The notes beneath the pieces are model-generated. The model searched no databases. It saw nothing but the letters and a program-made list of their open reading frames with translations, and had not been told where the DNA came from. From the IMG/VR virus record IMGVR_UViG_3300044833_000105: DNA of 20,000 nt; one strand, written 5' to 3'. Position numbers and translations under genes: made by a program. The first letter of the stretch is position 1; the number at the start of each line of letters is the position of its first letter. The stretch comes from an uncultured virus (IMG/VR IMGVR_UViG_3300044833_000105) (lineage: Duplodnaviria > Heunggongvirae > Uroviricota > Caudoviricetes). This document shows, piece by piece, positions 2,009 through 20,000 of this stretch.

Positions 2009-2384
2009 TGTCGGTCACGAGGCTTTCCAGGGCCGATAACGCACGCGCTGCCGCTTCTATCCTCCACGGCGCAGCATGGGGCCAGCGATCCCGAAGCAAT
2101 GAATCCCACTCTCCGATGTGGGATGAGTCATTATCGACGGATTTGCCCGAATGGGCAAGTATTTTTTCTCGTTTACTATCTTGGTCGTGTGTGCATACCT
2201 CTTTCGAGGTATGCGGGATATCGCGGAGCCACAACTCCAGCGCTTCGTGAACGGCGGATTGAAAGCTGACTCGCGACTCGCCATACTTGCGCGTTAGCAC
2301 TTTCTGTTCAACCCTCAACCTCAAATCCGGGTCAAGACGCACCGACGTCTCAATTTTTTTGCTTTTTATTTCCTTGCCGCTCAT
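1881..2384 (-). CDS. Putative repressor with N-terminal ribbon-helix-helix (CopG/Arc-like) domain
   Basis: ETSVRLDPDLRLRVEQKV...SFQSAVHEALELWL fits the RHH strand-helix-helix pattern. It is divergent from the early operon; ATG at 2384 assumed. Confidence 0.55.
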   Translation of the reverse strand: MSGKEIKSKKIETSVRLDPDLRLRVEQKVLTRKYGESRVSFQSAVHEALELWLRDIPHTSKEVCTHDQDSKREKILAHSGKSVDNDSSHIGEWDSLLRDRWPHAAPWRIEAAARALSALESLVTDNGATHADVSPKLTLEDIAKGLGPVRPSKNRGRGRGGQADRTA

Positions 2385-2650: not shown

Positions 2651-2922
2651 CCAATAACGATTTCAAAGAACGCAAGACCGTGGTTTCCATCCGGTCTCGA
2701 ATCAAATCTGAAGCTAGTTTGCCCGAACCTCCAACGCCGTGCAATACCCGCAAACCACAACGAATTGAAAAGACTAACGCGATTTGCTTTTGCGACACCG
2801 TGTATGCCCGCGTTCATGGCCATCGACTCGTGCGCGACTTCGTGAGTGGCGATTCAATAGCCCTCGTCGCGCTGAAAAAACGCGTTCATCAGGCCACCGT
2901 AGAGCTTGCGCTCCGGGACTAA
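2647..2922 (+). CDS. Hypothetical protein
   Basis: ATGA overlap with the upstream gene. Confidence 0.55.
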   Translation: MTNNDFKERKTVVSIRSRIKSEASLPEPPTPCNTRKPQRIEKTNAICFCDTVYARVHGHRLVRDFVSGDSIALVALKKRVHQATVELALRD

Positions 2923-2942
2923 TTGTTAAACAAGAGGGCCGC

Positions 2943-3404
2943 ATGACGGTAGAGCGATCCATTTATTACGGCATGCTTCAGCGTTGCTATAACCAAAAAT
3001 CTCCCAGCTATAAGAACTACGGAGGCAGGGGCATTACGGTCTGCGAAGAATGGCGCAAGAGCCCAGAGGCGTTTATGCGTGACATAGGCCAGCGTCCTTC
3101 TCCACTACACTCCATCGGCATAATCTACAACGACGGGCCGTATTCGCCAATGAACTGTGAATGGCAGACACAAAGGCAGCAGATGCGGAACACGCGGCTG
3201 ACGAAGTATCTAACATACAAGGGCCGCACCGCACCGTGTATTGAGTGGGCTGAGGAATCGGGAATCAAGCAGTGCACTATAGAGTCCCGCATTAGGTCTG
3301 GATGGACCCCATCGCAAGTGCTGAATATGCCCGTGATTCGCACGGTTAACTATTGCATGCGCGATGCGTGGGAACGCACCCTTGACAGTCTGGAGCGCGC
3401 ATGA
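2943..3404 (+). CDS. Phage HNH-like endonuclease family protein (YGGRGI type), possibly degenerate
   Basis: MLQRCYN...YKNYGGRGITVCEEW...YSPMNCEW...QMRN and a C-terminal EWAEESGI...TIESRIRSGW HTH-like tail. AGAGGG RBS before ATG 2943. Confidence 0.8.
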   Translation: MTVERSIYYGMLQRCYNQKSPSYKNYGGRGITVCEEWRKSPEAFMRDIGQRPSPLHSIGIIYNDGPYSPMNCEWQTQRQQMRNTRLTKYLTYKGRTAPCIEWAEESGIKQCTIESRIRSGWTPSQVLNMPVIRTVNYCMRDAWERTLDSLERA

Positions 3405-4084
3405 ATAGAACTTGGATCACCGACGGAAACGGAAATCGCAACTCCGTAGAATATTGGGGATCACGAGAAGCAGCAGAGCGAGCGCTAGCGAGCTTAAAAA
3501 ATTGCTCCGACTGCTCCGACTGCTCCCGCTGCTCCGGCTGCTCCGACTGCTCCCGCTGCTCCGGCTGCTCCGTCTGCTCCGACTGCTCCGACTGCTCCGA
3601 CTGCTCCGACTGCTCCGACTGCTCCGACTGCTCCCGCTGCTCCGGCTGCTCCGACTGCTCCCGCTGCTCCGGCTGCTCCGACTGCTCCCGCTGCTCCGAC
3701 TGCTCCGACTGCTCCGGCTGCTCCCGCTGCTCCGACTTAGAGAAAGCCAAGCCGATCAATAGCGACAATCCATACGTCGCGCCTGTAGTTCCCGTTGTGC
3801 CAGATTTACACGCCAAAATATACGCCGCTGTTTCTCAGCCCGGAGCACTAGACATGGGCCACTGGCACAAATGTGAGAAGACGCATTGCCGTGGCGGATG
3901 GGTGGTCGCGCTAGCTGGTGAGGCCGGTTACAAACTAGAGCAGTTCCACGGCGACACATTGATGGCGGCGATGCTGATCTACGACGCAAGCTGCCCGGGA
4001 TTCAAGATCAATCCAGCGCGGTTCTTCGATAGCAATGAAGCGGCAATAGCAGATATGAAGGCCCTAGCCGAGGCCAACGCATGA
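3401..4084 (+). CDS. Cys-rich (CSx)26 repeat protein with C-terminal LDMGHWH-C-THCRGGW domain
   Basis: ATGA coupling at both ends; internal 9-bp tandem repeat. Confidence 0.85.
   Translation: MNRTWITDGNGNRNSVEYWGSREAAERALASLKNCSDCSDCSRCSGCSDCSRCSGCSVCSDCSDCSDCSDCSDCSDCSRCSGCSDCSRCSGCSDCSRCSDCSDCSGCSRCSDLEKAKPINSDNPYVAPVVPVVPDLHAKIYAAVSQPGALDMGHWHKCEKTHCRGGWVVALAGEAGYKLEQFHGDTLMAAMLIYDASCPGFKINPARFFDSNEAAIADMKALAEANA
3503..3736 (+). repeat. 26 x 9-bp tandem repeat TGCTCC(GAC/CGC/GGC/GTC)
   Basis: Directly visible: 14 GAC, 6 CGC, 5 GGC and 1 GTC units. Confidence 0.97.
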
Positions 4085-5743: not shown

Positions 5744-5943
5744 TGGCAAAACGAACAACCGAAATACAGCGCATACAGACTTATTTTGAGACCGCTGAAC
5801 CGGCTGCGATCCAGGTGGCCTACGAGGTCATTCAGGGGATCGTTAAGCGCAGGAATGGCGCGAGTACGCCAGCACGTAAGGTTAGAGCCGATAAGGGCAC
5901 CAAGCGTCAGGATGCATTGCCACTTAGTGAGGCGACCGCGTGA
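5743..5943 (+). CDS. Small basic protein, possibly DNA-binding
   Basis: TAATG coupling; RKVRADKG basic motif. Confidence 0.7.
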   Translation: MAKRTTEIQRIQTYFETAEPAAIQVAYEVIQGIVKRRNGASTPARKVRADKGTKRQDALPLSEATA

Positions 5944-6683
5944 GCACCCAGCAGCAACTTGCAGTAGTTGATGAGCCCGGCGCGATTCAGCGTGCTCCCA
6001 GTGTATACGAGATATTCGCGCAGCTCGCCCGTGATCCAAATATTGATCCGGCCCGCATTCAGCAGTTGATGGAATTGCAGGAACGAGCGGAAGCCCGCCA
6101 AGCGGAGCGTGACTTCATTGCGGCCATGAACAGGCTTCAGCCGCGATTACCACGTATCGGCAAAGACGGCAGCATCGACCTCGGACGCGGCAAGCCGATG
6201 AAGTTCGCCAAGTACGAGAGCATAGACGCCGTGATTCGTCCCCTTCTGACACAAGAGGGGTTCTCTATTGCCTTCGGGACGACTGCCAACGACAAGGGCA
6301 TAACGATCACGGCAACGTTGTCGCACGCGGCCGGGCATTCCCGCACGGAGAGCATGCCGTTGCCATTCGATACCGGTCCTGGGCGTAATAACTTGCAAGC
6401 GGTGGGCAGCACGCTGAGCTACGGCAAGAGGTACTTAATTTGCGCGATGCTTAACCTCGTCACTGTAGGCGAAGATGACGATGGGAATGCCTCTGGTGCA
6501 ATCAGCAAAGTTCAGGAGGAAAACATTCAGGCGCTAATGTCCGAATGCGCGTTGAGCCCCGAGGGCATCTCAAAGTTCATGGAGTTCATGGGCGTAAAGG
6601 CTCTGAGTGACATTCAGCAGGGCGGCTACAAAGCGGCGATAAATTTCCTGGTAGCTAAGAGGCGCAAGGTAGGCGAAAAATGA
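5940..6683 (+). CDS. erf: Erf-family single-strand annealing recombinase
   Basis: QAVGSTLSYGKRYLICAMLNLVTVGEDDDGN matches the Erf G-S-x-x-S/T-Y-x-x-R-Y...D-x-D motif. Confidence 0.9.
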   Translation: MSTQQQLAVVDEPGAIQRAPSVYEIFAQLARDPNIDPARIQQLMELQERAEARQAERDFIAAMNRLQPRLPRIGKDGSIDLGRGKPMKFAKYESIDAVIRPLLTQEGFSIAFGTTANDKGITITATLSHAAGHSRTESMPLPFDTGPGRNNLQAVGSTLSYGKRYLICAMLNLVTVGEDDDGNASGAISKVQEENIQALMSECALSPEGISKFMEFMGVKALSDIQQGGYKAAINFLVAKRRKVGEK

Positions 6684-7396
6684 TTTTTCACGACTGCGAA
6701 CAGAACTCGGTCGAGTGGTACACGATGCGCCTTGGGATTCCAACGTCGAGTGAATTCCATAGGATTATCACGCCCAAGACCTTGAAGATTTCTAGTCAGG
6801 CTCCCGGCTACATGTACCGGCTGCTGGCGGAGTGGATTACCGGCGAGCAGATCGAGAACGCGCAAACCGAGTGGATGGTCCGTGGCACTGAGCTTGAGGA
6901 CAAGGCGGTCCTTGCCTATGAAATGCTGACTGAGCAAGAAACTTCGCGTGGCGGATTTATCACTAGCGACGACGGAATGCTGGGATGCTCGCCAGATCGC
7001 CTTATCGGTGAAGAGGGTGACTTAGAAATAAAATGCCCACTTATTCAAACACAGGTAGAGTATGCGCTGACCGGCAAGGTTGGAGAAGATTACGCTTGCC
7101 AGTTACAGGGGCGTATGCTCATTCACGGTCGTCAGTGGATTGATATTTTCAGTTATCATCCTCGCCTGTCGATTCCGGCGATACGTGTCCGTCGCGACGA
7201 TAAGTTCATCGCCGCAATGGGTCCAGTTCTGACGGCTTTCACGGAAACCATGTTTAAGGCTCGGGAGGAACTTGAGCGGCGCTTTGGTCCGTTCATCAGA
7301 GAGACACCTCCGTCTGTCGCAGACGACTGCGGAGGACTGGGCATAAGCGATGAAGACCTGGAGCAGATTCTAGCAGCGCAGCATATGGCGCACTAG
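6680..7396 (+). CDS. YqaJ/lambda-exonuclease-like viral recombination nuclease
   Basis: EQNSVEWYTMRLGIPTSS, RGTELE, GCSPDRLI, LEIKCP, YACQLQG motifs. Confidence 0.9.
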   Translation: MIFHDCEQNSVEWYTMRLGIPTSSEFHRIITPKTLKISSQAPGYMYRLLAEWITGEQIENAQTEWMVRGTELEDKAVLAYEMLTEQETSRGGFITSDDGMLGCSPDRLIGEEGDLEIKCPLIQTQVEYALTGKVGEDYACQLQGRMLIHGRQWIDIFSYHPRLSIPAIRVRRDDKFIAAMGPVLTAFTETMFKAREELERRFGPFIRETPPSVADDCGGLGISDEDLEQILAAQHMAH

Positions 7397-7412
7397 CGAC
7401 CTTGTGACGTTA

Positions 7413-7442
7413 GCGGGGTCGCCAGCGGCCCCGCACTTTTTG
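7413..7442 (+). terminator. Intrinsic terminator candidate
   Basis: GCGGGGTCG-CCAG-CGGCCCCGC stem followed by ACTTTTTT. Confidence 0.65.
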
Positions 7443-7461
7443 AAAAAAGGAGAAATATTAA

Positions 7462-7977
7462 ATGTCCGACTCAGGAGTAACGTTCGCGGATACCTCAATC
7501 GAGGTGCTTACGCAAAAGATGATCGCGATGCTGAAGTCGTACGCGGCATCGCAGAACAAACAGGCGGTGGACGCATTCAAGGGAAAGATGGACGCCTGGC
7601 ATAAAGACGTGGCCTTCCGCCAAGCGAACAATCAGCCGTTACAGCCCCAGCCCGTTCCTCCGATGATCATGTTTCTCAACGAGGAAGTAGTAAGACAGAA
7701 CGAGCAAGGTACCGGAGAGAAAGACTGGTCAAGCGTATTTTCATCCGTACCGTACGTCTACATCGCTCCGCCATCGGCCGCGACTCACCCTCCAGTGGTC
7801 ATCGGGCAAGAGGACGTGAGCTACCCCGGGTTCTACGACACGGTTTCTGGTGACGGTCCCTGGGTGCCGGTTGGCTATAAGCAACCGCAAGATGGCCACG
7901 AGTACACGAAGACCGTGGTATCGCACTCTCCATTCGCTCCGGGCGGATTGGTGACGTTGTTTCAGTTGACAGCTTAA
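7462..7977 (+). CDS. Hypothetical protein, 171 aa
   Basis: Strong AAGGAGA RBS; not coupled to neighbours. Confidence 0.8.
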   Translation: MSDSGVTFADTSIEVLTQKMIAMLKSYAASQNKQAVDAFKGKMDAWHKDVAFRQANNQPLQPQPVPPMIMFLNEEVVRQNEQGTGEKDWSSVFSSVPYVYIAPPSAATHPPVVIGQEDVSYPGFYDTVSGDGPWVPVGYKQPQDGHEYTKTVVSHSPFAPGGLVTLFQLTA

Positions 7978-8014
7978 ATCCATAGAAAGGAGAACAGGGG
8001 ACAACTCAAGAAGC

Positions 8015-8216
8015 GCGGCCTTGGTGGGTACTGAGGCCGCTAATTCGGGAGCCTGCCGGTTTAACTATGCGTCGCCAATCCAGCAATGGATTGTCATGGT
8101 AGATCGCTGGTTTCCGAATTAGCGCAGGTTTGCTGGCTCGTCGAACTGAACACGGCCTTAGTAACAGTAGGGCTGAGATGGGCCAGCAATTCAGATCGGC
8201 GCGCCACTGGGGCGCG
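8015..8216 (+). ncRNA. Putative structured RNA element (four stem-loops)
   Basis: Stems at 8015-8040, 8038-8124 (GCAA-capped), 8130-8189 and 8200-8216, with many G.U pairs on the + strand. No credible ORF. Confidence 0.55.
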
Positions 8217-8241
8217 GAGGGGAGAGAGGGGAAACAAATAA

Positions 8242-8406
8242 ATGAAGGACAAGCAATACATTGGAGACGGAGTATACGCGGAGTTTGATAACTTCGGTGA
8301 TCTTGTTCTAACAACCGAGGATGGCGTCCTCGTCACAAACAGGATTGTGCTAGAGCCAGAAACGCTGTCCACTCTTCAGCAATTCCTTAAGACGGTGCCA
8401 GCATGA
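8242..8406 (+). CDS. 54-aa phage hypothetical protein (YIGDGVY motif)
   Basis: Read manually: MKDKQYIGDGVYAEFDNFGDLVLTTEDGVLVTNRIVLEPETLSTLQQFLKTVPA*; purine-rich RBS and ATGA overlap downstream. Confidence 0.8.
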   Translation: MKDKQYIGDGVYAEFDNFGDLVLTTEDGVLVTNRIVLEPETLSTLQQFLKTVPA

Positions 8407-8900
8407 ATCCCAGCCCAAACAAAACCGAAGTGTCCAGCGTGCTGTGCAACCTGACGCTCCAGAACGCGGGCGAAGCGCCGATTCCGGAGTTCCTCCGCAA
8501 CATGACCGAAGTGGAGCGCCAGAAGTTCGTTAAGCGCTTCAACGAATATGAACCAACTCCTGAGCTACTACGCAGCGCGGGCGACGTGCAGCGCCAAGCG
8601 CATCAGTACTCGGACGACGAGACGCTCATTCCCGCCGACTATGACGAGTACCACAAGGCCAAGGAGCAAGCCTATTGCGATGTGATCAACCGAATGGCGG
8701 CGGATCATCAGAAGGTGCTCTATCAGGTTGAGATACGCGACAAGGCTATCTCTGGATTGATTGCGCGCCACTCGGAGGAATGCAAGCAGTTCGAGGCTGA
8801 AGCTGAGGACTTACGCGCCTACGTACGGCGGCGCACGATAGGCATGGCGATATTCTGCGCGGCGGCTGTGGCGATTGGTGTAGGTGGCCTGCTTAAATGA
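8403..8900 (+). CDS. Coiled-coil protein with C-terminal TM helix
   Basis: Ends TIGMAIFCAAAVAIGVGGLLK. Confidence 0.75.
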   Translation: MNPSPNKTEVSSVLCNLTLQNAGEAPIPEFLRNMTEVERQKFVKRFNEYEPTPELLRSAGDVQRQAHQYSDDETLIPADYDEYHKAKEQAYCDVINRMAADHQKVLYQVEIRDKAISGLIARHSEECKQFEAEAEDLRAYVRRRTIGMAIFCAAAVAIGVGGLLK

Positions 8901-9223
8901 AGCGCTGGATCGAGCAAGCTTTGTTGCGGGTGCTGAATAGCCGCGTCATTAACAACACTCCGTGCAAGTACGGATTCGTGGGTAATATTGATGCCTTCAG
9001 CTACGAGCACCTAGCTAGCGAGGAACGCTCGCGACCAGGAATAACGGTCAAGACGATCCTTGAGGAAGCCGACCGCTTCAAATCGTGCGCCGCGAGCAAG
9101 GATGGCGTAACGGTTATCGAACCAGATGGCACCACCCACGAAGCAACCGTTTGGGATATGCACGAATTACGACTCGCTTTCGCCCCCAAGGAAGTAGACA
9201 AAAATGATGGAGCTAACCAGTGA
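8897..9223 (+). CDS. Hypothetical protein
   Basis: Coupled ORF. Confidence 0.7.
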   Translation: MKRWIEQALLRVLNSRVINNTPCKYGFVGNIDAFSYEHLASEERSRPGITVKTILEEADRFKSCAASKDGVTVIEPDGTTHEATVWDMHELRLAFAPKEVDKNDGANQ

Positions 9224-10008
9224 GTGAACCACGTATCGTAAGCCAGTTCTCCTGCGGTGCTGCTTCGGCGGTGGCGACGAAGATAATCCTCTCCGGGTAT
9301 ACAGCCGGGCGCATTGTGATATTGAACGCCTTCATCGAAGAGGAGCACAAAGACAACCGACGTTTCTTGGCCGATTGCGAGAAGTGGTTTGATCATCCGA
9401 TCACCGTCATTAGGAACGAAAAGTTTGGCGCTTCAACGCACGAGACATGGCGACGTGAGCGTTATATCAAGGGTATCCACGGAGCATCTTGCTCGCGTGC
9501 GCTAAAGCGTGACCTGCTTGATTCAGTATCGCTTCCATCCGACATTTACGTCCTTGGGTACACCGCCGAGGAACCAGACAGGCTAGACCGGTTCCTGGAC
9601 GCCAACAACGGACGAACGGTGCTGACTCCGCTAATTGAAAGAGGGCTGACTAAGGCAGACTGTCTTGCGATCATCGATCGCGCCGGTATCGAACTTCCGA
9701 TGATGTATCGGCTTGGGTTCCACAACGCCAATTGTATCGGCTGTCCTAAGGGCGGCGCTGGCTACTGGAACAAGATCCGCGAGGTATTTCCCACGCAGTT
9801 TTACCAGATAGCGGACATCCAGGAAGCGATTGGCCCAGCAGCAAAGTTTCTACGGAATCGCCGGACTAACGAACGTATCTATCTTCGTGAACTTGATCCG
9901 ACGCACGGGAGAATTGAAGAGGAGCCGGAGATATCGTGCTCGTTCTTCTGCGAGATGGCAGAGCAGGACATCGCGGTCGGCATCGGCATTGCGGGGTGGA
10001 TGAAGTGA
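9220..10008 (+). CDS. Phage PAPS reductase-like (adenine nucleotide alpha-hydrolase, PP-loop) protein
   Basis: FSCGAASAVA PP-loop-like start; SCSRALK, GYTAEE, NANCIGCPKGGAGYW and SCSFFCE Cys motifs. Confidence 0.8.
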   Translation: MSEPRIVSQFSCGAASAVATKIILSGYTAGRIVILNAFIEEEHKDNRRFLADCEKWFDHPITVIRNEKFGASTHETWRRERYIKGIHGASCSRALKRDLLDSVSLPSDIYVLGYTAEEPDRLDRFLDANNGRTVLTPLIERGLTKADCLAIIDRAGIELPMMYRLGFHNANCIGCPKGGAGYWNKIREVFPTQFYQIADIQEAIGPAAKFLRNRRTNERIYLRELDPTHGRIEEEPEISCSFFCEMAEQDIAVGIGIAGWMK

Positions 10009-10205
10009 AAGCTGAAGACGCAATATCAGAAGTAGCTACACCGTGGGCGGTGATCTGCCCGCGTCATGGGCAGGTGTTCATGAATGCCGATGGCTATTTC
10101 CGGCAGATGGATTTTACGGATTCGAAGTGGATCTGTCCTAAGTGCGGCGCGAATGCTGAATGGGATGACGAAAACTTTGAAGCGCGGGACGGAGACGGAT
10201 CGTAA
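10005..10205 (+). CDS. Small Zn-finger protein
   Basis: CPRHG...WICPKCG; GTGA overlap. Confidence 0.7.
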   Translation: MKAEDAISEVATPWAVICPRHGQVFMNADGYFRQMDFTDSKWICPKCGANAEWDDENFEARDGDGS

Positions 10206-11038
10206 TGAGCGACCAATTCTGGAAACTGCTGACCAGCGACCTGCGCCCGCCGATTCAGGGCGGAGGGCCGCTGTTCGATGGCCAGCTACCGTACCTGTTG
10301 CCAGAGGTAGATGTGAATTCGACCGACGCCGAATGTGGCCGTGGCTGGAACTTCGTCCGCAACATCGAAACGGGATTTAGCATCGCGGGCATGTGGCGAA
10401 CCCGCAGACCGAACGCAGTGCTGCTGGTAGAGCCGTCCGATGGATGGGTTGAGCGCGGCAACAAGTGTAGGGCTGCGCAGTTGAACCTTGTGCGGCATGC
10501 TACAGACGAAGAGATTAAATCCGGCTTGCTCGCGTTTTCGAAATCATTCGGTGCTCATCATAATCAGATGGCCGAAGAGCAGTGGCAATGGTGGACGGCG
10601 CTCAAGCGACCTTGCCGCGACCGCGATAAGGTTATCACTGGCTTGCAACTAGCGCTAAAGCGGCGCGGCCTTGACTGGTTCTTGAAGGAATATCCGGCCG
10701 CCAGGGACGCCTGGAACTACAGGGACTCATGGAACGCCAGGGACGCCTTGAACGCCATGGACTCCAGGGACGCCTGGAACGCCATGGACGCCTGGTACAC
10801 CTGGCACTCCAGTGCCTACAATGACCACTGGGCCGCCAGGGACGTCTGGGACTCCTGCGCCGACAGTGTCACCTGGGACGCCAGTGCCGCCCTCACGGTC
10901 AGCTTCGCTGCCCGCTCTGGCTGGATCAAGAAAGATTCCGATTTTCTGACCGCTGGAATCCGTGATGCGTATTTCAACGGTCTAGATATAGCCGTGCCCA
11001 CAGGTACCAAGGAACTCGGGTGGAGCATGTGCGAATGA
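10205..11038 (+). CDS. Hypothetical protein with degenerate A(W/R)D tripeptide repeats
   Basis: TAATG coupling; 21 tripeptide units at 10700-10888. Confidence 0.8.
   Translation: MSDQFWKLLTSDLRPPIQGGGPLFDGQLPYLLPEVDVNSTDAECGRGWNFVRNIETGFSIAGMWRTRRPNAVLLVEPSDGWVERGNKCRAAQLNLVRHATDEEIKSGLLAFSKSFGAHHNQMAEEQWQWWTALKRPCRDRDKVITGLQLALKRRGLDWFLKEYPAARDAWNYRDSWNARDALNAMDSRDAWNAMDAWYTWHSSAYNDHWAARDVWDSCADSVTWDASAALTVSFAARSGWIKKDSDFLTAGIRDAYFNGLDIAVPTGTKELGWSMCE
10700..10888 (+). repeat. 21 x 9-bp degenerate tandem repeat, consensus GCC WGG GAC
   Basis: Units read directly: gccagggac, gcctggaac, tacagggac, tcatggaac... Confidence 0.85.
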
Positions 11039-11108: not shown

Positions 11109-11456
11109 ATGAAAGATCCGAATCCTTGGAAGTGCGACCAATGCGACACCAGGAAGGGTAAGGCCAACCATTGGTGGCAAGCTTTTGGGCAAGAGGGGGC
11201 GATACCAGCTTTTCTTATTTTCCCATGGAATGAAGAAATGGCCGAGGAGTCAGGCAGGCAGCATCTTTGTAGTGAATCGTGCGTAGCTAAGGCCGCTTCG
11301 CAGTGGATGGGAAAGATTAAGGAGGCCAATAACACACAAACAAAGACGACCACGTTCGCTGCTGCTGTCGCCGAGGCCATTACGGCATTTGCGGACACGT
11401 GCTACTGCGGAGAAATATTAATGGCTGACGGACGATGCCCAGAGGGTCACGAATGA
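11109..11456 (+). CDS. Zn-binding hypothetical protein
   Basis: GGAGG RBS; CDQC...NHWW...HLCSESC plus a C-terminal CYCG...CPEGH. Confidence 0.75.
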   Translation: MKDPNPWKCDQCDTRKGKANHWWQAFGQEGAIPAFLIFPWNEEMAEESGRQHLCSESCVAKAASQWMGKIKEANNTQTKTTTFAAAVAEAITAFADTCYCGEILMADGRCPEGHE

Positions 11457-11536: not shown

Positions 11537-11950
11537 ATGACCCTGCCCCACAACATCACGGCCGAGCAGTCGATAAAGCTTGGTTGGCACACACTGACCA
11601 AGAAGGGCTACCTGGAGTTGCGTGGAAGCGTTCCCGGAAAAAAGAATGCCTACAAGCGTTCGTTCAATGGCCGGATGCACGTGCCAGCCGAGATTCGCGC
11701 TCAACTAGACGCGCTTCAGCTTCAGGCGCAGGCACAGTGGAATCGACCTCCGATGGATGACGCGCATATCAAGGCGCGCTTCTTTGTGCGGAATCGGAAA
11801 TCCGATTTGGACAATAAATACGTCGCACTTCAGGATGTGCTGGTAAAGGCTGGCGTGCTGGTTAACGACTCGATAGCGCACGTTCGCAGCTTCGAGGCTA
11901 GCGCGGTGGTGACGATATTAGACGAGTACGTACAGGTGACCATCGAATGA
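11537..11950 (+). CDS. rusA: RusA-family Holliday junction resolvase
   Basis: GSVPGKKN and SDLDNKYVALQDVLVKAGVLVNDS (DxDN...D...ND catalytic pattern). Confidence 0.85.
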   Translation: MTLPHNITAEQSIKLGWHTLTKKGYLELRGSVPGKKNAYKRSFNGRMHVPAEIRAQLDALQLQAQAQWNRPPMDDAHIKARFFVRNRKSDLDNKYVALQDVLVKAGVLVNDSIAHVRSFEASAVVTILDEYVQVTIE

Positions 11951-12454: not shown

Positions 12455-12534
12455 AGTATAGAAGCGTATGCAGCGGTATCGAGGCCGACGACGTACCAGC
12501 GGCCTCTGTCGGCCCACGAGCGGCGGAGCGGTGA
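12451..12534 (+). pseudogene. Relic of a C5-cytosine methyltransferase N-terminus (27 aa)
   Basis: MKYRSVCSGIEA resembles the motif I start (M-x-Y-x-S-V-C-S-G-I-E-A) of phage Dcm enzymes, then diverges and stops. Confidence 0.6.
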
Positions 12535-13568
12535 GTATGCTCAAGGCCCCATTCCCGTGGTTCGGCGGCAAGTCGCGAGTGGCGCAGTTGGTATGGGACC
12601 GCTTTGGAAATGTACCGAATTACGTGGAGCCGTTATTTGGCAGTGGGGCGGTGTTGCTGGCGCGTCCATCGACGCCTGGGACTGAAACCATTAACGACTT
12701 GGATTGTATGGTCGCCAACTTCTGGCGTGCGCTGCAACGTGATCCCGAAGCGGTCGCCATGCACGCCGACAATCCGGTCAACGAAGCAGATCAGCACGCG
12801 CGTCATTTATGGCTCGTTCACCAGGAAGAATTTCGAGAGCGGATGAAAACGGAGCCGGAGTATTTCGATGCAAAAATCGCGGGGTGGTGGGTATGGGGAC
12901 AGTGTATCTGGATCGGCTCGGGATGGTGTTCGGTACAGCGACCGCACCTCGGGAACGCGGGCAAGGGCGTGAACCGGCAGCGACCGCACCTCGGGGACGC
13001 GGGCAAGGGCGTGCATCGTAAGCGACCGCACCTCGGGAACGCGGGCACGGGCGTGGAGGATGTCTCGTGCATCGTAAGCGACCGCACCTCGGGAACGCTT
13101 ACAGGCAAAAACATCCTGCGCTACATGGAAGATTTAGCGCACAGGCTGCGCCGAGTGCGTGTGTGTTGCGGCGACTGGTCCCGCGTCTGCGGACCTTCGC
13201 CAACGGTCAAGCTTGGCACTACGGGTGTCTTCCTCGATCCACCTTACGCGGCGGAAGCAGAACGCCAGGACGGACTATACGCCAGCGACAGCACTACGGT
13301 GGCTCACGACGTCCGTGAATGGGCCATTGAGTGGGGACAAGATCCACGGATGCGTATCGCGCTCTGTGGCTATCAGGGCGAGCATGACATGCCGTCCAGT
13401 TGGGAAGAGGTTGCCTGGAAAGCACGTGGCGGCTACGGGTCACAGGGAAGTGGATCTGGACGCGAAAACTCCAAGAAGGAAACCATTTGGTTTAGTCCAC
13501 ACTGTTTGCGGAACACGCTATTTGCCTACGCGGAATCGGCTGGTGAACTAACGGAGGCTTCGCTTTGA
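12531..13568 (+). CDS. D12-class N6-adenine DNA methyltransferase with internal 14-aa repeats
   Basis: PFPWFGGKSRVA, YVEPLFGSGAV, ETINDLD and FLDPPY motifs; start at GTG 12531 or ATG 12537. Confidence 0.9.
   Translation: MSMLKAPFPWFGGKSRVAQLVWDRFGNVPNYVEPLFGSGAVLLARPSTPGTETINDLDCMVANFWRALQRDPEAVAMHADNPVNEADQHARHLWLVHQEEFRERMKTEPEYFDAKIAGWWVWGQCIWIGSGWCSVQRPHLGNAGKGVNRQRPHLGDAGKGVHRKRPHLGNAGTGVEDVSCIVSDRTSGTLTGKNILRYMEDLAHRLRRVRVCCGDWSRVCGPSPTVKLGTTGVFLDPPYAAEAERQDGLYASDSTTVAHDVREWAIEWGQDPRMRIALCGYQGEHDMPSSWEEVAWKARGGYGSQGSGSGRENSKKETIWFSPHCLRNTLFAYAESAGELTEASL
12936..13098 (+). repeat. 3 x 42-bp tandem repeat plus a fourth, out-of-frame partial copy
   Basis: AGCGACCGCACCTCGGG(A/G)ACGC in units starting 12936, 12978 and 13020. 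Positions 13066-13098 duplicate 13010-13042. Confidence 0.95.
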
Positions 13569-13864: not shown

Positions 13865-14263
13865 GTGAATGAAAAAACAGCGGTGCATTTCAGTTCGGCG
13901 ACAGATAGGTGGGCAACTCCTGCCGCTGTCTATGCCGCGCTGAATGAAGAGTTCCGGTTCGACTACGATCCTTGTCCGCTTGACGGCTTGGAAGACGGCC
14001 TAGCGACGCTATTTAACCCTTGGTCGGGCCGCAGGGTGTTCTGCAACCCTCCATATGGTCCTGGTTTGGCTGAGTGGCTAAGACGCGGCCTGGAGGCGGA
14101 GTTAGCCGTGTTCCTGATTCCATCTAGGACGGATACGCGGTGGTTCCATGACATCGTGTTGCCTAGAGCCAAAGAGATTAGATTTATTCGTGGACGCTTG
14201 AGATTCGGAGATGCGGTAAACAACGCGCCATTCCCGAGCATGATCGTTATTTTCGAGCGGTAG
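13865..14263 (+). CDS. Phage N6-adenine methyltransferase (small T1-Dam-like family)
   Basis: WATP, FDYDPC, FCNPPYG, LIPSRTDTRWFH, FIRGRLRFG and APFPS motifs. Confidence 0.9.
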   Translation: MNEKTAVHFSSATDRWATPAAVYAALNEEFRFDYDPCPLDGLEDGLATLFNPWSGRRVFCNPPYGPGLAEWLRRGLEAELAVFLIPSRTDTRWFHDIVLPRAKEIRFIRGRLRFGDAVNNAPFPSMIVIFER

Positions 14264-14512: not shown

Positions 14513-14680
14513 ATGACCAATTCTACAGGCGCAGAGCGCGCCAACCAAGAACCAATAGACAGATCGGTTCCGGCGATAAACGGGCGACCTTGGACATTTA
14601 ACAGGTTCGATAACTACATCCGATATGTCAGTGGAGTGCTACGCGGACAGCGCGAACAAGAGGAGTACCGACTCGCATGA
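14513..14680 (+). CDS. Hypothetical protein, 55 aa
   Basis: GAGGTGGGG upstream of ATG 14513; ATGA overlap with the initiator gene. Confidence 0.55.
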   Translation: MTNSTGAERANQEPIDRSVPAINGRPWTFNRFDNYIRYVSGVLRGQREQEEYRLA

Positions 14681-15438
14681 AAAGGGGTGCTCCTCGCCAT
14701 CCAAAAATGAAGGAACTGGCGCGCCTTCTAAAGATCGAAGTTCACGCAGCGGTCGGAATTCTTGAGATGCTCTGGCACTTCACGGGCGAGTTTGCCCCGT
14801 GCGGTGACATCGGACGCATCAAAGACCCTGCCATTGCCGACGGCGTCTCTTGGCGCAAAGATCCAGACACCCTTATTAGGGCGCTGGTTGGTTCAGGCTG
14901 GCTAGACCGAAACGAAAAGTACCGCCTTATAGTTCACGATTGGGATCAACATGCCGACGAGTCAGTGAAAAAGAAACTAAACCGAATGCATGTTTGGTTT
15001 CTTCCGGAATATGCAGCGTGTCGAGATGCCGTAGAGACGGAGGAGAGACGTAATCCTCCTGCAAGTACAGACATGTCTAGCACTAAGGTAGATACATGTC
15101 TTCCCTCGCGAGAGGAAGGGCAAGGCAAGGCAAGGAAGGGCAAGGCGTTGTTGAATGATTTTGATGAATTTCGCAAAGCTTGCGTTGAGTGCGATTTGCC
15201 GTTCTCGGAAAAGGACATGGACCTAGCCGAATCGAAGTGGGCGTTTCTGGACTTCGAGGCTAAGTTGGCAGCGGTCAAGGGGTTGACTGACAGGAAGCAG
15301 TGCGGCGAGTTCGATGAGCAATCATTTCGGCCACTTCCACAGAACTATCTCGGGAAGCGCGCATGGGAGCGGCCGTTGCGAGTAAAGCAAACCAAACAGT
15401 CCAAGATCGACAAGTACTGGGAGGACATGAGCGTATGA
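14677..15438 (+). CDS. Phage replication initiator (replisome organizer-like, N-terminal winged HTH)
   Basis: HPKMKELARLL...AVGILEMLWH...ALVGSGWLD...VHDWDQH N-domain, a low-complexity linker, and a PQNYL..RAWE C-domain. Confidence 0.75.
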   Translation: MKRGAPRHPKMKELARLLKIEVHAAVGILEMLWHFTGEFAPCGDIGRIKDPAIADGVSWRKDPDTLIRALVGSGWLDRNEKYRLIVHDWDQHADESVKKKLNRMHVWFLPEYAACRDAVETEERRNPPASTDMSSTKVDTCLPSREEGQGKARKGKALLNDFDEFRKACVECDLPFSEKDMDLAESKWAFLDFEAKLAAVKGLTDRKQCGEFDEQSFRPLPQNYLGKRAWERPLRVKQTKQSKIDKYWEDMSV

Positions 15439-18319: not shown

Positions 18320-18588
18320 AGAAAAAAAAGGCAGTTCAGTTGGATGCCAATAAAGTCATGCCCTTACTGAAGCGGTTCCGATGGAAACTACCAAACAATG
18401 TTGATCGGCGCGTCCTGGATCGTTTTCATTTCGGCAAGTACTACGGCTACGGCGCAAAGGATCTGTGGATTCCGATCACAGTGCACGGCGGGATAGCCAC
18501 TAAAGCCTTTCATACTAAGACCGTAAAATTCCCGAAGCCTATTGAAAAACTCCTGCAGGCGATGTTGGAGACAGAAGATGCCTTCTAA
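18316..18588 (+). CDS. Hypothetical protein, paralog A
   Basis: Similar to 19087-19383. Confidence 0.8.
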   Translation: MKKKKAVQLDANKVMPLLKRFRWKLPNNVDRRVLDRFHFGKYYGYGAKDLWIPITVHGGIATKAFHTKTVKFPKPIEKLLQAMLETEDAF

Positions 18589-18835
18589 AACCGAATTGGA
18601 TGCCCTGCTGGAGCGCGTTCGCGAAGATCGGCGCGAGAGCGTGTGGGCTGTCCTGAAACGTGGCGTGTACGGTGTTTACCACCAAGTTTCCGCCAAACAC
18701 CTTGGCCGATACGTGAATGAGTTCGCCTTTCGGTTGAATGAGGGCAACGTGGCCCGTCACAGTCTGGAGCGCCTTGATTCGTTCATCGACGCCATTGCCG
18801 GTAAGCGTCTGACCTATGCGAGGTTGATCGCATGA
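18578..18835 (+). mobile_element. Chimeric ORF: phage N-terminus plus IS1595-family transposase C-terminal fragment
   Basis: ESVWAVLKRGVYGVYHQVSAKHLGRYVNEFAFRLN...GKRLTYARLI is the characteristic IS1595 (ISXO2-like) C-terminus. The first ~20 aa duplicate the ORF at 19843. Confidence 0.8.
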
Positions 18836-19086: not shown

Positions 19087-19383
19087 ATGGACCCACATCA
19101 AGCGGCCATCGAAAAGCACCTGAAGCGCCTGCATAGCTGGCAGGTTCCGGCGAGTGACGTAAAGCCAATTCTGAAACGGTTCGGTTGGAAGTTGCCGTCC
19201 AACGTGGAGACTCGCCAAGTAGCGCGGTGGCACTATGGATCGTACTACGGGTACGGCGAGCGCGGTTTATGGATTCCGTTAAATTCATTGGGTGGGATGG
19301 CTACCAAAGCCTTTCACTCGAAAACCGTTAAATTCCCAAAGCGCATCCAATCGGCACTTTGCAAACTCCTGGAGAAAGCATGA
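19087..19383 (+). CDS. Hypothetical protein, paralog A'
   Basis: Shares LKRFxWKLP, YYGYG, LWIP and GGxATKAFHxKTVKFPK with 18316-18588. Confidence 0.8.
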   Translation: MDPHQAAIEKHLKRLHSWQVPASDVKPILKRFGWKLPSNVETRQVARWHYGSYYGYGERGLWIPLNSLGGMATKAFHSKTVKFPKRIQSALCKLLEKA

Positions 19384-19586
19384 ACGAGGAAATTCCAATT
19401 GCCGAGCCAATGCGGACCAAGCGCCAATGCCAGCAGTGCGGTAGCTGGGAGCGCTGCGTTTACGTGAAGGTGAAGAATCAAGGCTTCCGGCGTGTCTGCG
19501 TTCCGTGCGCTCACAAAATGCGCGACAAGGGATATCTGGCGATGCCTGATAGAGTTTGGCCGATGCAGACGAAAGAGGTTTTTTAA
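19380..19586 (+). CDS. Small Zn-finger protein
   Basis: GGAGA RBS; CQQC...CVPC. Confidence 0.7.
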   Translation: MNEEIPIAEPMRTKRQCQQCGSWERCVYVKVKNQGFRRVCVPCAHKMRDKGYLAMPDRVWPMQTKEVF

Positions 19587-19846
19587 TGGCGCGCAAACTT
19601 ACCGGGCTTGACGATGGCCCTCCGCTGCCACATCCGCGAGTTCTGGAGCGCGTGTATCGCGAGATTGAGGAGAAATACCCAAAGCCCATGCCAACCGAAG
19701 ACCAAAAGCAGAAATACTTTGAGGAAGGATACGACCAATGCTTCCGCGAAGTGATTGACGAAATCAAGACCTGGAACCATCCCGACACCAAGTCTTTCAT
19801 CATGTGGCTATCGAAAACCTTCAAATCTTCGGCGGCCAAATTATGA
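19586..19846 (+). CDS. Hypothetical protein
   Basis: AGAGG RBS; TAATG coupling. Confidence 0.7.
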   Translation: MARKLTGLDDGPPLPHPRVLERVYREIEEKYPKPMPTEDQKQKYFEEGYDQCFREVIDEIKTWNHPDTKSFIMWLSKTFKSSAAKL

Positions 19847-20000
19847 CAGTGCTCCGCACGGAACTGGATACCCTGCTGGAGCGCGTTCGCGAAGATCGGC
19901 GCGATACGACCGGCAAGAATCGCAACGCGGTCGCCTATGACTGTTGGCGCATGTTCGAGGATCTCGCCACGCGCTACAAAGAAGAATGCGCCATGCGCGG
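19843..20000 (+). CDS. Hypothetical protein (3' truncated by window)
   Basis: MTVLRTELDTLLERVREDRRDTTGKNRNAVAYDCWRMFEDL...; ATGA overlap. Confidence 0.7.
   Translation, partial: MTVLRTELDTLLERVREDRRDTTGKNRNAVAYDCWRMFEDLATRYKEECAMR

Follow-up and report, generated by a model that had tools for sequence, protein, structure and literature searches.

A strongly folded intercistronic RNA element of no known family in the early region of an uncultured soil phage

We analyzed a 20,000-nucleotide (nt) stretch of DNA, called the window below, from the uncultured tailed phage IMGVR_UViG_3300044833_000105 (Caudoviricetes; IMG/VR). The window lies within a 66-kb contig, and its layout looks like that of the early part of a tailed-phage genome. 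A gap of 264 nt, among the largest in the window, occupies positions 7978 to 8241 within a run of same-strand genes, and is bounded by the TAA (7977) of a gene for a 171-amino-acid (aa) orphan protein and the ATG (8242) of a gene for a 54-aa protein. Most of this gap (8015 to 8216) had been predicted, from inspection of the letters, to be an almost fully pairable RNA made up of four helices, P1 to P4. All four were found at the predicted positions (Table 1). As RNA of the + strand, the element has 146 of its 202 nt paired, in 73 pairs of which 12 are G.U, in line with the claim that its non-Watson-Crick positions are G.U on that strand.

The two large helices are irregular rods. P2 has an uninterrupted base of 15 to 16 base pairs (bp) followed by segments of 2, 6, 5 and 7 bp, which are separated by a U.U mismatch, two 1-nt bulges and a 6x1 internal loop; the 7-bp tip is capped by a GCAA tetraloop of the GNRA type (8083 to 8086). 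The 10x1 internal loop of P3 is A-rich (GAACUGAACA). P2 and P3 together span 155 nt, or 202 nt when P1 and P4 are included. P1, which competes with P2 for positions 8038 to 8040 as originally predicted, is followed by UAAUUC and not by a U tract. Close to where the gap begins, 10 nt past the stop of the 171-aa gene, lies an AAGGAG (7987 to 7992, +) with no ATG, GTG or TTG 5 to 12 nt downstream; judged by its sequence, it is an orphan Shine-Dalgarno-like tract.

Folding energies were compared with those of dinucleotide shuffles (200 for the whole element and 100 per helix). The + strand RNA of 8015 to 8216 folds at -99.6 kcal/mol compared with -72.9 +/- 4.2 kcal/mol for the shuffles (z = -6.33), and none of the 200 was as good. 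The - strand RNA reached -69.2 kcal/mol (z = -2.47), which 4 of 200 shuffles equaled. Taken singly, P2 (-44.2 kcal/mol; z = -6.52 on the + strand, 0/100 shuffles as good, and -4.82 on the - strand), P1 (z = -4.40 and -4.83, respectively) and P3 (-30.1 kcal/mol; z = -4.44 and -1.30) were each significant. P4 is indeed present just before the ribosome site, but its z-scores (-1.84 on the + strand, reached by 6/100 shuffles, and -1.96 on the - strand) place it at the level of chance. Ten further gaps of the window were tested; their + strand z-scores ranged between -2.35 and +2.03, and none was comparably structured. In a rough sliding-window scan (282 windows reaching 14 kb, 15 shuffles only), 8001 to 8200 on the + strand ranked third (z = -5.2) after the two strands of 2101 to 2300, the top-ranked of which scored -8.1; with 200 shuffles, the z-score of the latter region was -3.08.

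When DNA parameters were used, the two strands folded equally well (z = -3.02 with 0/200 shuffles as good for the + strand; z = -3.15 for the - strand). The strand difference appears with RNA parameters, and this favors a structure at the RNA level, as the original prediction had held. A strand-neutral comparison, in which each helix arm was aligned with the reverse complement of its partner arm, gave 65 matches, 10 G.T and 0 A.C positions (read on the + strand), 9 transversions and 17 gap columns. Were these positions the product of strand-blind decay of a DNA palindrome, the two-sided binomial probability of a 10:0 split would be about 0.002. Such G.U polarity is what is expected from selection on a transcript and not on a DNA palindrome, and its restriction to the sense strand therefore argues for selection on the transcript. 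The argument for RNA-level structure on the sense strand stands.

Folding in the wider context of 7940 to 8320 clarified the arrangement of the helices. When 8015 to 8216 is folded alone, a closing helix that pairs 8015 to 8034 with 8196 to 8215 is isoenergetic with the local fold (-99.6 versus -99.4 kcal/mol). In context, its probability is 0.001, compared with 0.997 for the local P1, while the pairs of P2 and P3 exceed 0.998 and 0.999, respectively, and the two registers of P4 have probabilities of 0.81 and 0.19. The ribosome site of the downstream gene (8217 to 8232) is unpaired with a probability of 0.75, and the following positions including the AUG (8233 to 8244) with a probability of 0.91. 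Since both are open, the structure insulates the start of this gene and does not sequester it.

The gap is noncoding. The 51-codon open reading frame (ORF) at 8086 to 8241 was considered as a small gene and rejected: its coding score was -0.10 (genes, 0.28 +/- 0.14; off-frames, about -0.41 +/- 0.2), its ATG is not preceded by a Shine-Dalgarno sequence, and it has no homologue. It is also missing from a protein collection that contains the proteins of both neighbors. A 33-codon ORF with a TTG start (8021 to 8122) scored 0.22 but was likewise set aside, being short and without a well-placed ribosome site. No PHROG family was matched by any of the four ORFs that overlap the gap. A possible duplication of the purine-rich flanks was rejected as well, as 173 of 500 shuffles reached their similarity score.

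The element was not matched to any known RNA family. Rfam 15, whose families include riboswitches, ribozymes, small RNAs, 6S, Y RNA-like, HEARO/omega and large ornate RNAs, gave no match at gathering score over the whole window. At an expect value (E) of <= 10, three matches were returned over 7900 to 8350, all far below threshold and at chance level (MIR9481, 20.4 of 130 bits; snoR4, 18.6 of 60; CPEB3 ribozyme, 14.1 of 35). ARAGORN found no tRNA or tmRNA gene in the window, and inspection by eye found no hammerhead-like core motif, in agreement with the view that this is not a tRNA, riboswitch or known ribozyme. The fold statistics, the strand polarity of the G.U pairs, the lack of Rfam, tRNA or tmRNA matches and the lack of coding signal thus support the general claim of a structured RNA of no known family on the sense strand of the early operon, as far as a single sequence allows. 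The three functions suggested with that claim (an antitermination RNA, tandem RNase III processing sites, or a small RNA or decoy) are hypothetical.

No U-tract terminator was found in the gap, and a scan of the + strand between 7000 and 9000 revealed no promoter-like site. Lacking a promoter and a terminator of its own, the RNA can arise only within the operon transcript. The one convincing intergenic terminator on the + strand of the window, the hairpin at 7413 to 7434, lies 0.58 kb 5' of the structured element. It separates the YqaJ-type exonuclease gene from the 171-aa orphan gene, right behind the Erf-exonuclease module, and the gap that holds it (7397 to 7461) has fold z-scores of -2.35 (+) and -0.48 (-). 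Because no promoter-like site precedes the next gene, the genes past this hairpin would need read-through or antitermination. In the 12 kb 3' of the element, a terminator scan found nothing convincing, only weak intragenic sites. The complementarity of the unpaired segments to the rest of the window is 8 to 9 nt at most, about chance level.

Homologues of the element were sought at the level of the locus, the neighboring proteins and the fold. A blastn search with 7000 to 9500 against 50,697 phage records found nothing, and neither did one with the gap alone (E <= 1) against phage and plasmid collections. Comparison loci amounting to 1.16 Mb were assembled around 80 relatives of the PAPS-reductase-like protein and 98 relatives of the 54-aa protein (80 of 161 from IMG/VR and 18 from genomes). 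Against the former, the gap gave best E values of 0.48 (blastn) and 0.66 (nhmmer); the latter gave nothing. No locus was syntenic, and each shared at most 2 of the 36 window proteins. IMG/VR scans with the 171-aa orphan protein, a 165-aa protein encoded farther downstream, the exonuclease and P0002 (a relative of the orphan protein, described below) confirmed no relative, and the 165-aa protein had none among 5.8 billion proteins. A metagenome scan with an alignment of the 171-aa protein yielded 281 pattern matches, none of which was confirmed.

A covariance model of P2 and P3, R1, was built from the single sequence. Over the window and the fetched loci, it recovered nothing beyond the element (186 bits) and the antisense of the element (19 bits); for foreign sequence, the best E values were 0.13 and 0.31, and it had no match upstream of the 98 relatives of the 54-aa gene. 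An exact 18-nt pattern from the element occurred 0 times in IMG/VR and 9 times in metagenomes, and none of the 9 matched R1. There were also no matches to R1 in 5 genomes reached through the loci (E <= 1) or in 151-genome samples of two phyla (E <= 0.1), which are small samples (307 genome searches). The only sequencing run that matches the locus is a DNA soil metagenome, possibly the source of the sequence, in which contigs at 80% likeness comprised the source contig only, with no variants. By sequence and by covariance model the element appears as an orphan, and the phage as isolated, among the collections searched.

The downstream 54-aa protein belongs to a large family (at least 1,509 representative clusters at E <= 0.001) with the motif K-x-Y-[LI]-G-D-[GA]-V-Y ... 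L-T-T-E-[DN]-G ... T-N-R-I-V-L-E-P. The ATG at 8242 is supported by relatives that begin within a few residues of it, and relatives were also found in metagenome-assembled genomes of many phyla. Its predicted fold comprises four beta strands plus a helix (pLDDT 92.2). In a structure comparison against representatives, the best match was PC4 (Z 6.4, root mean square deviation [rmsd] 2.1, 52 residues aligned), and the top four matches were PC4, two entries of MoSub1 and a Burkholderia PC4 homologue (Z 6.4 to 5.8, rmsd 2.1 to 2.3, 52 to 54 residues); a PC4-like protein of phage T5 gave a Z of 4.6. Foldseek returned no match to the model at E <= 0.001. The predicted likeness to PC4 is at the level of the fold only, with Z below 8. 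On this basis, phrog_11545 may be an unannotated PC4-like family of single-stranded DNA (ssDNA)-binding proteins in phages, and such a single-strand binder would suit the neighboring recombination module.

Relatives of the 54-aa gene indicate whether the structured element accompanies it. The upstream gap could be measured in 97 loci; it was 19 nt or less in 81 of these, most commonly -4 (a stop/start overlap), and reached 150 nt or more in 4. The four long gaps share no structure: one holds a terminator-like hairpin, one has a z-score of +0.85, and two have z-scores near -2.5. The prevalence of short gaps shows that the module is not a leader that travels with the 54-aa gene. It is specific to the phage lineage or to this junction.

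Table 1. Coordinates of the element and of other features in the 20,000-nt window
Feature	Position	Strand	Description
Leftward ORF, 173 aa	1881-2402	-	No family
Divergent control region	~2300-2450 (broader extent 2100-2460)		Between 173-aa ORF and first rightward gene
Terminator-like hairpins	2141-2160 and 2335-2350		In control region
25-nt direct repeat starting GCGTTCTAAA	Copies at 2403 and 2428		Operator-like; in control region
HNH endonuclease	2784-3404	+	
Erf-type annealing protein	5940-6683	+	
YqaJ-type exonuclease	6680-7396	+	
Intrinsic-terminator-like hairpin	7413-7434	+	9 bp, 8 of them G-C, then ACTTTTT
Orphan gene upstream of gap, 171 aa	7462-7977	+	Strong AAAGGAG ribosome site; TAA at 7975-7977
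Purine-rich spacer	7978-8014	+	Partly unpaired; mean probability of being unpaired, 0.46
P1	8017-8025/8030-8038, extendable to 8015-8040	+	G+C-rich, 9-11 bp, 2 G.U, 4-nt loop
P2	8039-8123 (8038-8124 with C-G pair)	+	87-nt irregular rod, 35-36 bp, 5 G.U
P3	8127-8192	+	66-nt hairpin; 2+13 bp, 10x1 internal loop, 8 bp, 7-nt loop; 5 G.U
P4	8199/8200-8215/8216	+	Short G+C hairpin, two alternative registers, directly 5' of ribosome site
Shine-Dalgarno tract and spacer of next gene	8217-8241	+	Purine-rich, single-stranded in the fold
Small phage protein gene, 54 aa	8242-8406	+	phrog_11545
PAPS-reductase-like protein	9220-10008	+	
RusA	11537-11950	+	
Two adenine methyltransferases	12468-13568, 13865-14263	+	
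Replication-initiator-like protein	14677-15438	+	

The rightward genes form a long run that begins at about 2426, and those not named in Table 1 are mostly without a family. The orphan gene just upstream of the gap has a coding score of 0.32; its product has no Pfam or PHROG family. In the search of 5.8 billion proteins, only 2 of 22 scored candidates fell at E <= 0.001, namely, the protein itself and P0002 (45% identity), which is encoded on a 1,110-nt contig. P0002 aligns through to the end of the 171-aa protein, supporting the end of its gene.

Several repeats were observed elsewhere in the window. The gene at 3401 to 4084 (+), which matches two PHROGs of unknown function (phrog_31265 and phrog_15341), contains about 24 registers of a 9-nt tandem repeat at 3467 to 3781, encoding a Cys-rich run of C-S-[DGR] triplets (CSDCSDCSRCSGCS...). 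A second 9-nt-periodic array lies at 10696 to 10891 in the gene at 10205 to 11038 (+), whose product has no family; the repeats that the array encodes are triplet-like and rich in Trp, Asp and Ala (ARDAWNYRDSWNARDALNAMDSRDAWNAMDAW...). At 12936 to 13117, a 42-nt unit (14 codons) is repeated in tandem, in three to four copies, within the first methyltransferase gene (+), which is of the D12 class. Within the replication-initiator-like gene (+), AGGAAGGGCAAGGC occurs in two exact copies at 15113 and 15133, 20 nt apart (15113 to 15146), and a third copy (93%) is found at 11151; these iteron-like copies could be the sign of an origin located within the initiator gene itself, as in lambda O. Toward the right end of the window, two pairs of 47- to 52-nt direct repeats with 81 to 94% identity (18487/19291 and 18590/19858, within 18487 to 18636 and 19291 to 19904) suggest a duplicated gene or module.

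The explanation we put forward, tentatively and as possible rather than probable, is that the element is an intercistronic double-stranded RNA (dsRNA) module for RNase III-type processing or mRNA stability. Since it carries neither a promoter nor a terminator, it would be transcribed as part of the operon mRNA and would act in cis within the polycistronic early transcript, as three hairpins that are each stable by themselves (P1 and two rods, P2 of 36 bp and P3 of 23 bp). The near-continuous dsRNA rods would be a substrate for a host RNase III-type endonuclease and would also bar exonucleases. By cleavage or by blocking, the message would be divided in two: the upstream part, carrying the orphan gene, would gain a protective 3' hairpin, and the downstream part would start with a 5' hairpin just before the open ribosome site of the 54-aa gene. 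This would fix how the two operon halves compare in stability and dosage.

Among the three functions originally suggested, tandem RNase III-type sites fit the anatomy best. RNase III targets are described as coaxial dsRNA that is at least 22 nt long, or about two helical turns, and phages lambda, T7 and T3 are known to have such processing sites (PMC5371410). P2 (35 to 36 bp) and P3 (13 + 8 bp) each exceed this minimum of about 22 nt, and the ribosome site next to the element on its 3' side is left free. The element resembles the T7 and T3 early R sites and the lambda N-leader and sib sites in being intercistronic or untranslated within a long phage transcript, in being built of long, double-stranded but irregular hairpins, interrupted by bulges and internal loops, that have no promoter or terminator of their own, and in having an RNA-level, strand-specific structure. 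It is unlike them in that there is no sequence relationship and in comprising three hairpins over about 180 nt where they have one of about 50 to 70 nt. If the analogy holds, its mode of action is likely one already known, that of the phage intercistronic dsRNA element, and no new principle is shown.

Several observations weigh against this explanation. No homologue was found in the collections searched, and so there is neither covariation nor any sign of conservation, and the one run that matches the locus is DNA, with no RNA run listed. A 200-nt module of three hairpins is larger than a simple processing site needs to be, the R sites of T7 being single hairpins of about 50 to 60 nt. T7 carries an R site between most of its early genes, whereas here the element is unique in 20 kb; since the 10 other gaps are unstructured, this phage makes no general use of such intergenic sites. 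The short upstream gaps in 81 of 97 relatives further imply that the module is dispensable for the downstream gene family. Finally, a stable structure is not sufficient for cleavage by RNase III, since the structured ompA RNA was left uncut in vitro (PMC5371410).

The same fold evidence would serve for a stable noncoding RNA that is excised from the operon transcript and acts in trans as a small RNA, a scaffold that binds a phage or host protein, or a dsRNA decoy; this is the main rival, although we consider it unlikely. The GNRA-capped rod and the A-rich 10-nt internal loop hint at more than a nuclease site, the possible closing helix would delimit a domain of about 200 nt, and the element lies among early genes of unknown function. 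The closing helix, however, has a probability of only 0.001 in context, the RNA has no promoter or terminator of its own, and the unpaired segments reach no more than 9 nt of complementarity within the window, about chance. There is, moreover, no Rfam match even at E <= 10, no homologue, and no RNA run listed for the locus. A precedent for excision is DicF of the Qin prophage (Rfam RF00039). DicF is described as cut from the polycistronic dicBF prophage transcript by RNase E and RNase III, so that it too is a noncoding segment between operon genes with ends made by processing (PMC5069750). Unlike DicF, which is 53 to 72 nt long and can end at a Rho-independent terminator, the element is about 200 nt long and lacks a terminator; it matches nothing in Rfam, and no target complementarity could be identified for it in the window. 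In a bolder form of this proposal, which we regard as rather doubtful, the element would be the first member of an undescribed class of phage structured RNAs, a domain of about 180 to 200 nt that is set free from the early transcript and that acts in trans during host takeover. The domain would be made up of the GNRA-capped 36-bp rod, the second rod containing the A-rich internal loop, and either a hairpin at the flank or a closing helix; the released RNA might serve as a dsRNA decoy for a host nuclease or sensor, or as the RNA subunit of a particle with one of the adjacent orphan proteins.

The structure could also be without function, a recent insertion of a MITE-, REP- or ERIC-like hairpin or the residue of a rearrangement that is passively transcribed, although this seems quite unlikely. 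Nearly all relatives of the downstream gene are without an element there (gaps of at least 150 nt in just 4 of 97), the flanking genes count as orphans, so that 7462 to 8241 resembles an inserted block, and the two ends of the element are capable of pairing in the manner of terminal inverted repeats. ERIC/IRU, Correia/NEMIS and REP/BIME repeats are imperfect palindromes, intergenic and cotranscribed, which nucleases may target and which may change the stability of mRNA, and the element shares with them an intergenic hairpin structure. Unlike these multicopy repeats with terminal inverted repeats, it was found as a single copy (none other in the window, in blastn searches of the phage and plasmid collections, or with R1 in the small genome samples) without a flank duplication (173/500 shuffles), and comprises three different hairpins rather than one palindrome. 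The strict 10:0 polarity of its G.U positions also argues for selection on the transcript. A role as a protein-bound leader or operator for the downstream gene or operon half has some appeal in that the element is immediately 5' of a gene whose product is predicted to fold most like single-strand binders of the PC4 type (Z 6.4 to 5.8 for the top four matches); autoregulation by a nucleic-acid-binding product is known for T4 gene 32. We nevertheless consider it improbable, given that the ribosome site is not sequestered, that 81 of 97 family members have upstream gaps of <= 19 nt and the four long gaps have no common structure, that R1 has no match upstream of the 98 relatives, and that the PC4 match, below Z 8, is at fold level only.

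Two further readings seem highly improbable. The original prediction had also named an HK022 put-like antitermination RNA, which of its three proposals fits worst. RNAs of the put type bind the beta-prime zinc-binding domain and suppress termination at terminators downstream of them. Like putL and putR, the element would present two adjacent bulged stem-loops on a nascent early transcript and might thus modify RNA polymerase by processive antitermination or anti-pausing. The put RNAs fit two stem-loops into about 70 nt and exert their effect over distances above 10 kb; putL closely follows PL, and putR is located some 270 nt from the PR start (PMC9378689). P2 and P3 at 155 nt are twice that size (155 to 200 nt for the element), the only candidate early control region (about 2300 to 2450) lies some 5.6 kb upstream with no + strand promoter-like site between 7000 and 9000, and the one good terminator is upstream of the element, with only weak intragenic sites downstream. 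Failing in size and in promoter-proximal position, and with no target terminator in view, a put-like function is disfavored. As for a signal at the DNA level, such as ssDNA hairpins for replication priming or recombination, the element does sit between the recombination module (Erf and YqaJ-type exonuclease) and replication genes, and its + strand folds as ssDNA better than all 200 shuffles (z = -3.02). The - strand folds equally well as DNA (z = -3.15), however, and the strands differ only with RNA parameters; iteron-like repeats, the expected mark of an origin, are instead at 15113 and 15133, within the replication-initiator-like gene.

At present, the element is one well-folded orphan sequence, a specific and testable candidate and not yet a biological finding, and its covariance model R1 can serve in broader searches. 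Early phage genes are where host-takeover and counter-defense functions tend to sit, and if the element proved to be a true trans-acting RNA, it would represent a new class of phage noncoding RNA among such genes. If the dsRNA module is instead a true processing or stability element, then an uncultured phage from soil, nearly devoid of sequenced relatives, would use RNA-level partitioning of its operon in the style of T7 and lambda, and the module would constitute a compact, portable dsRNA insulator.

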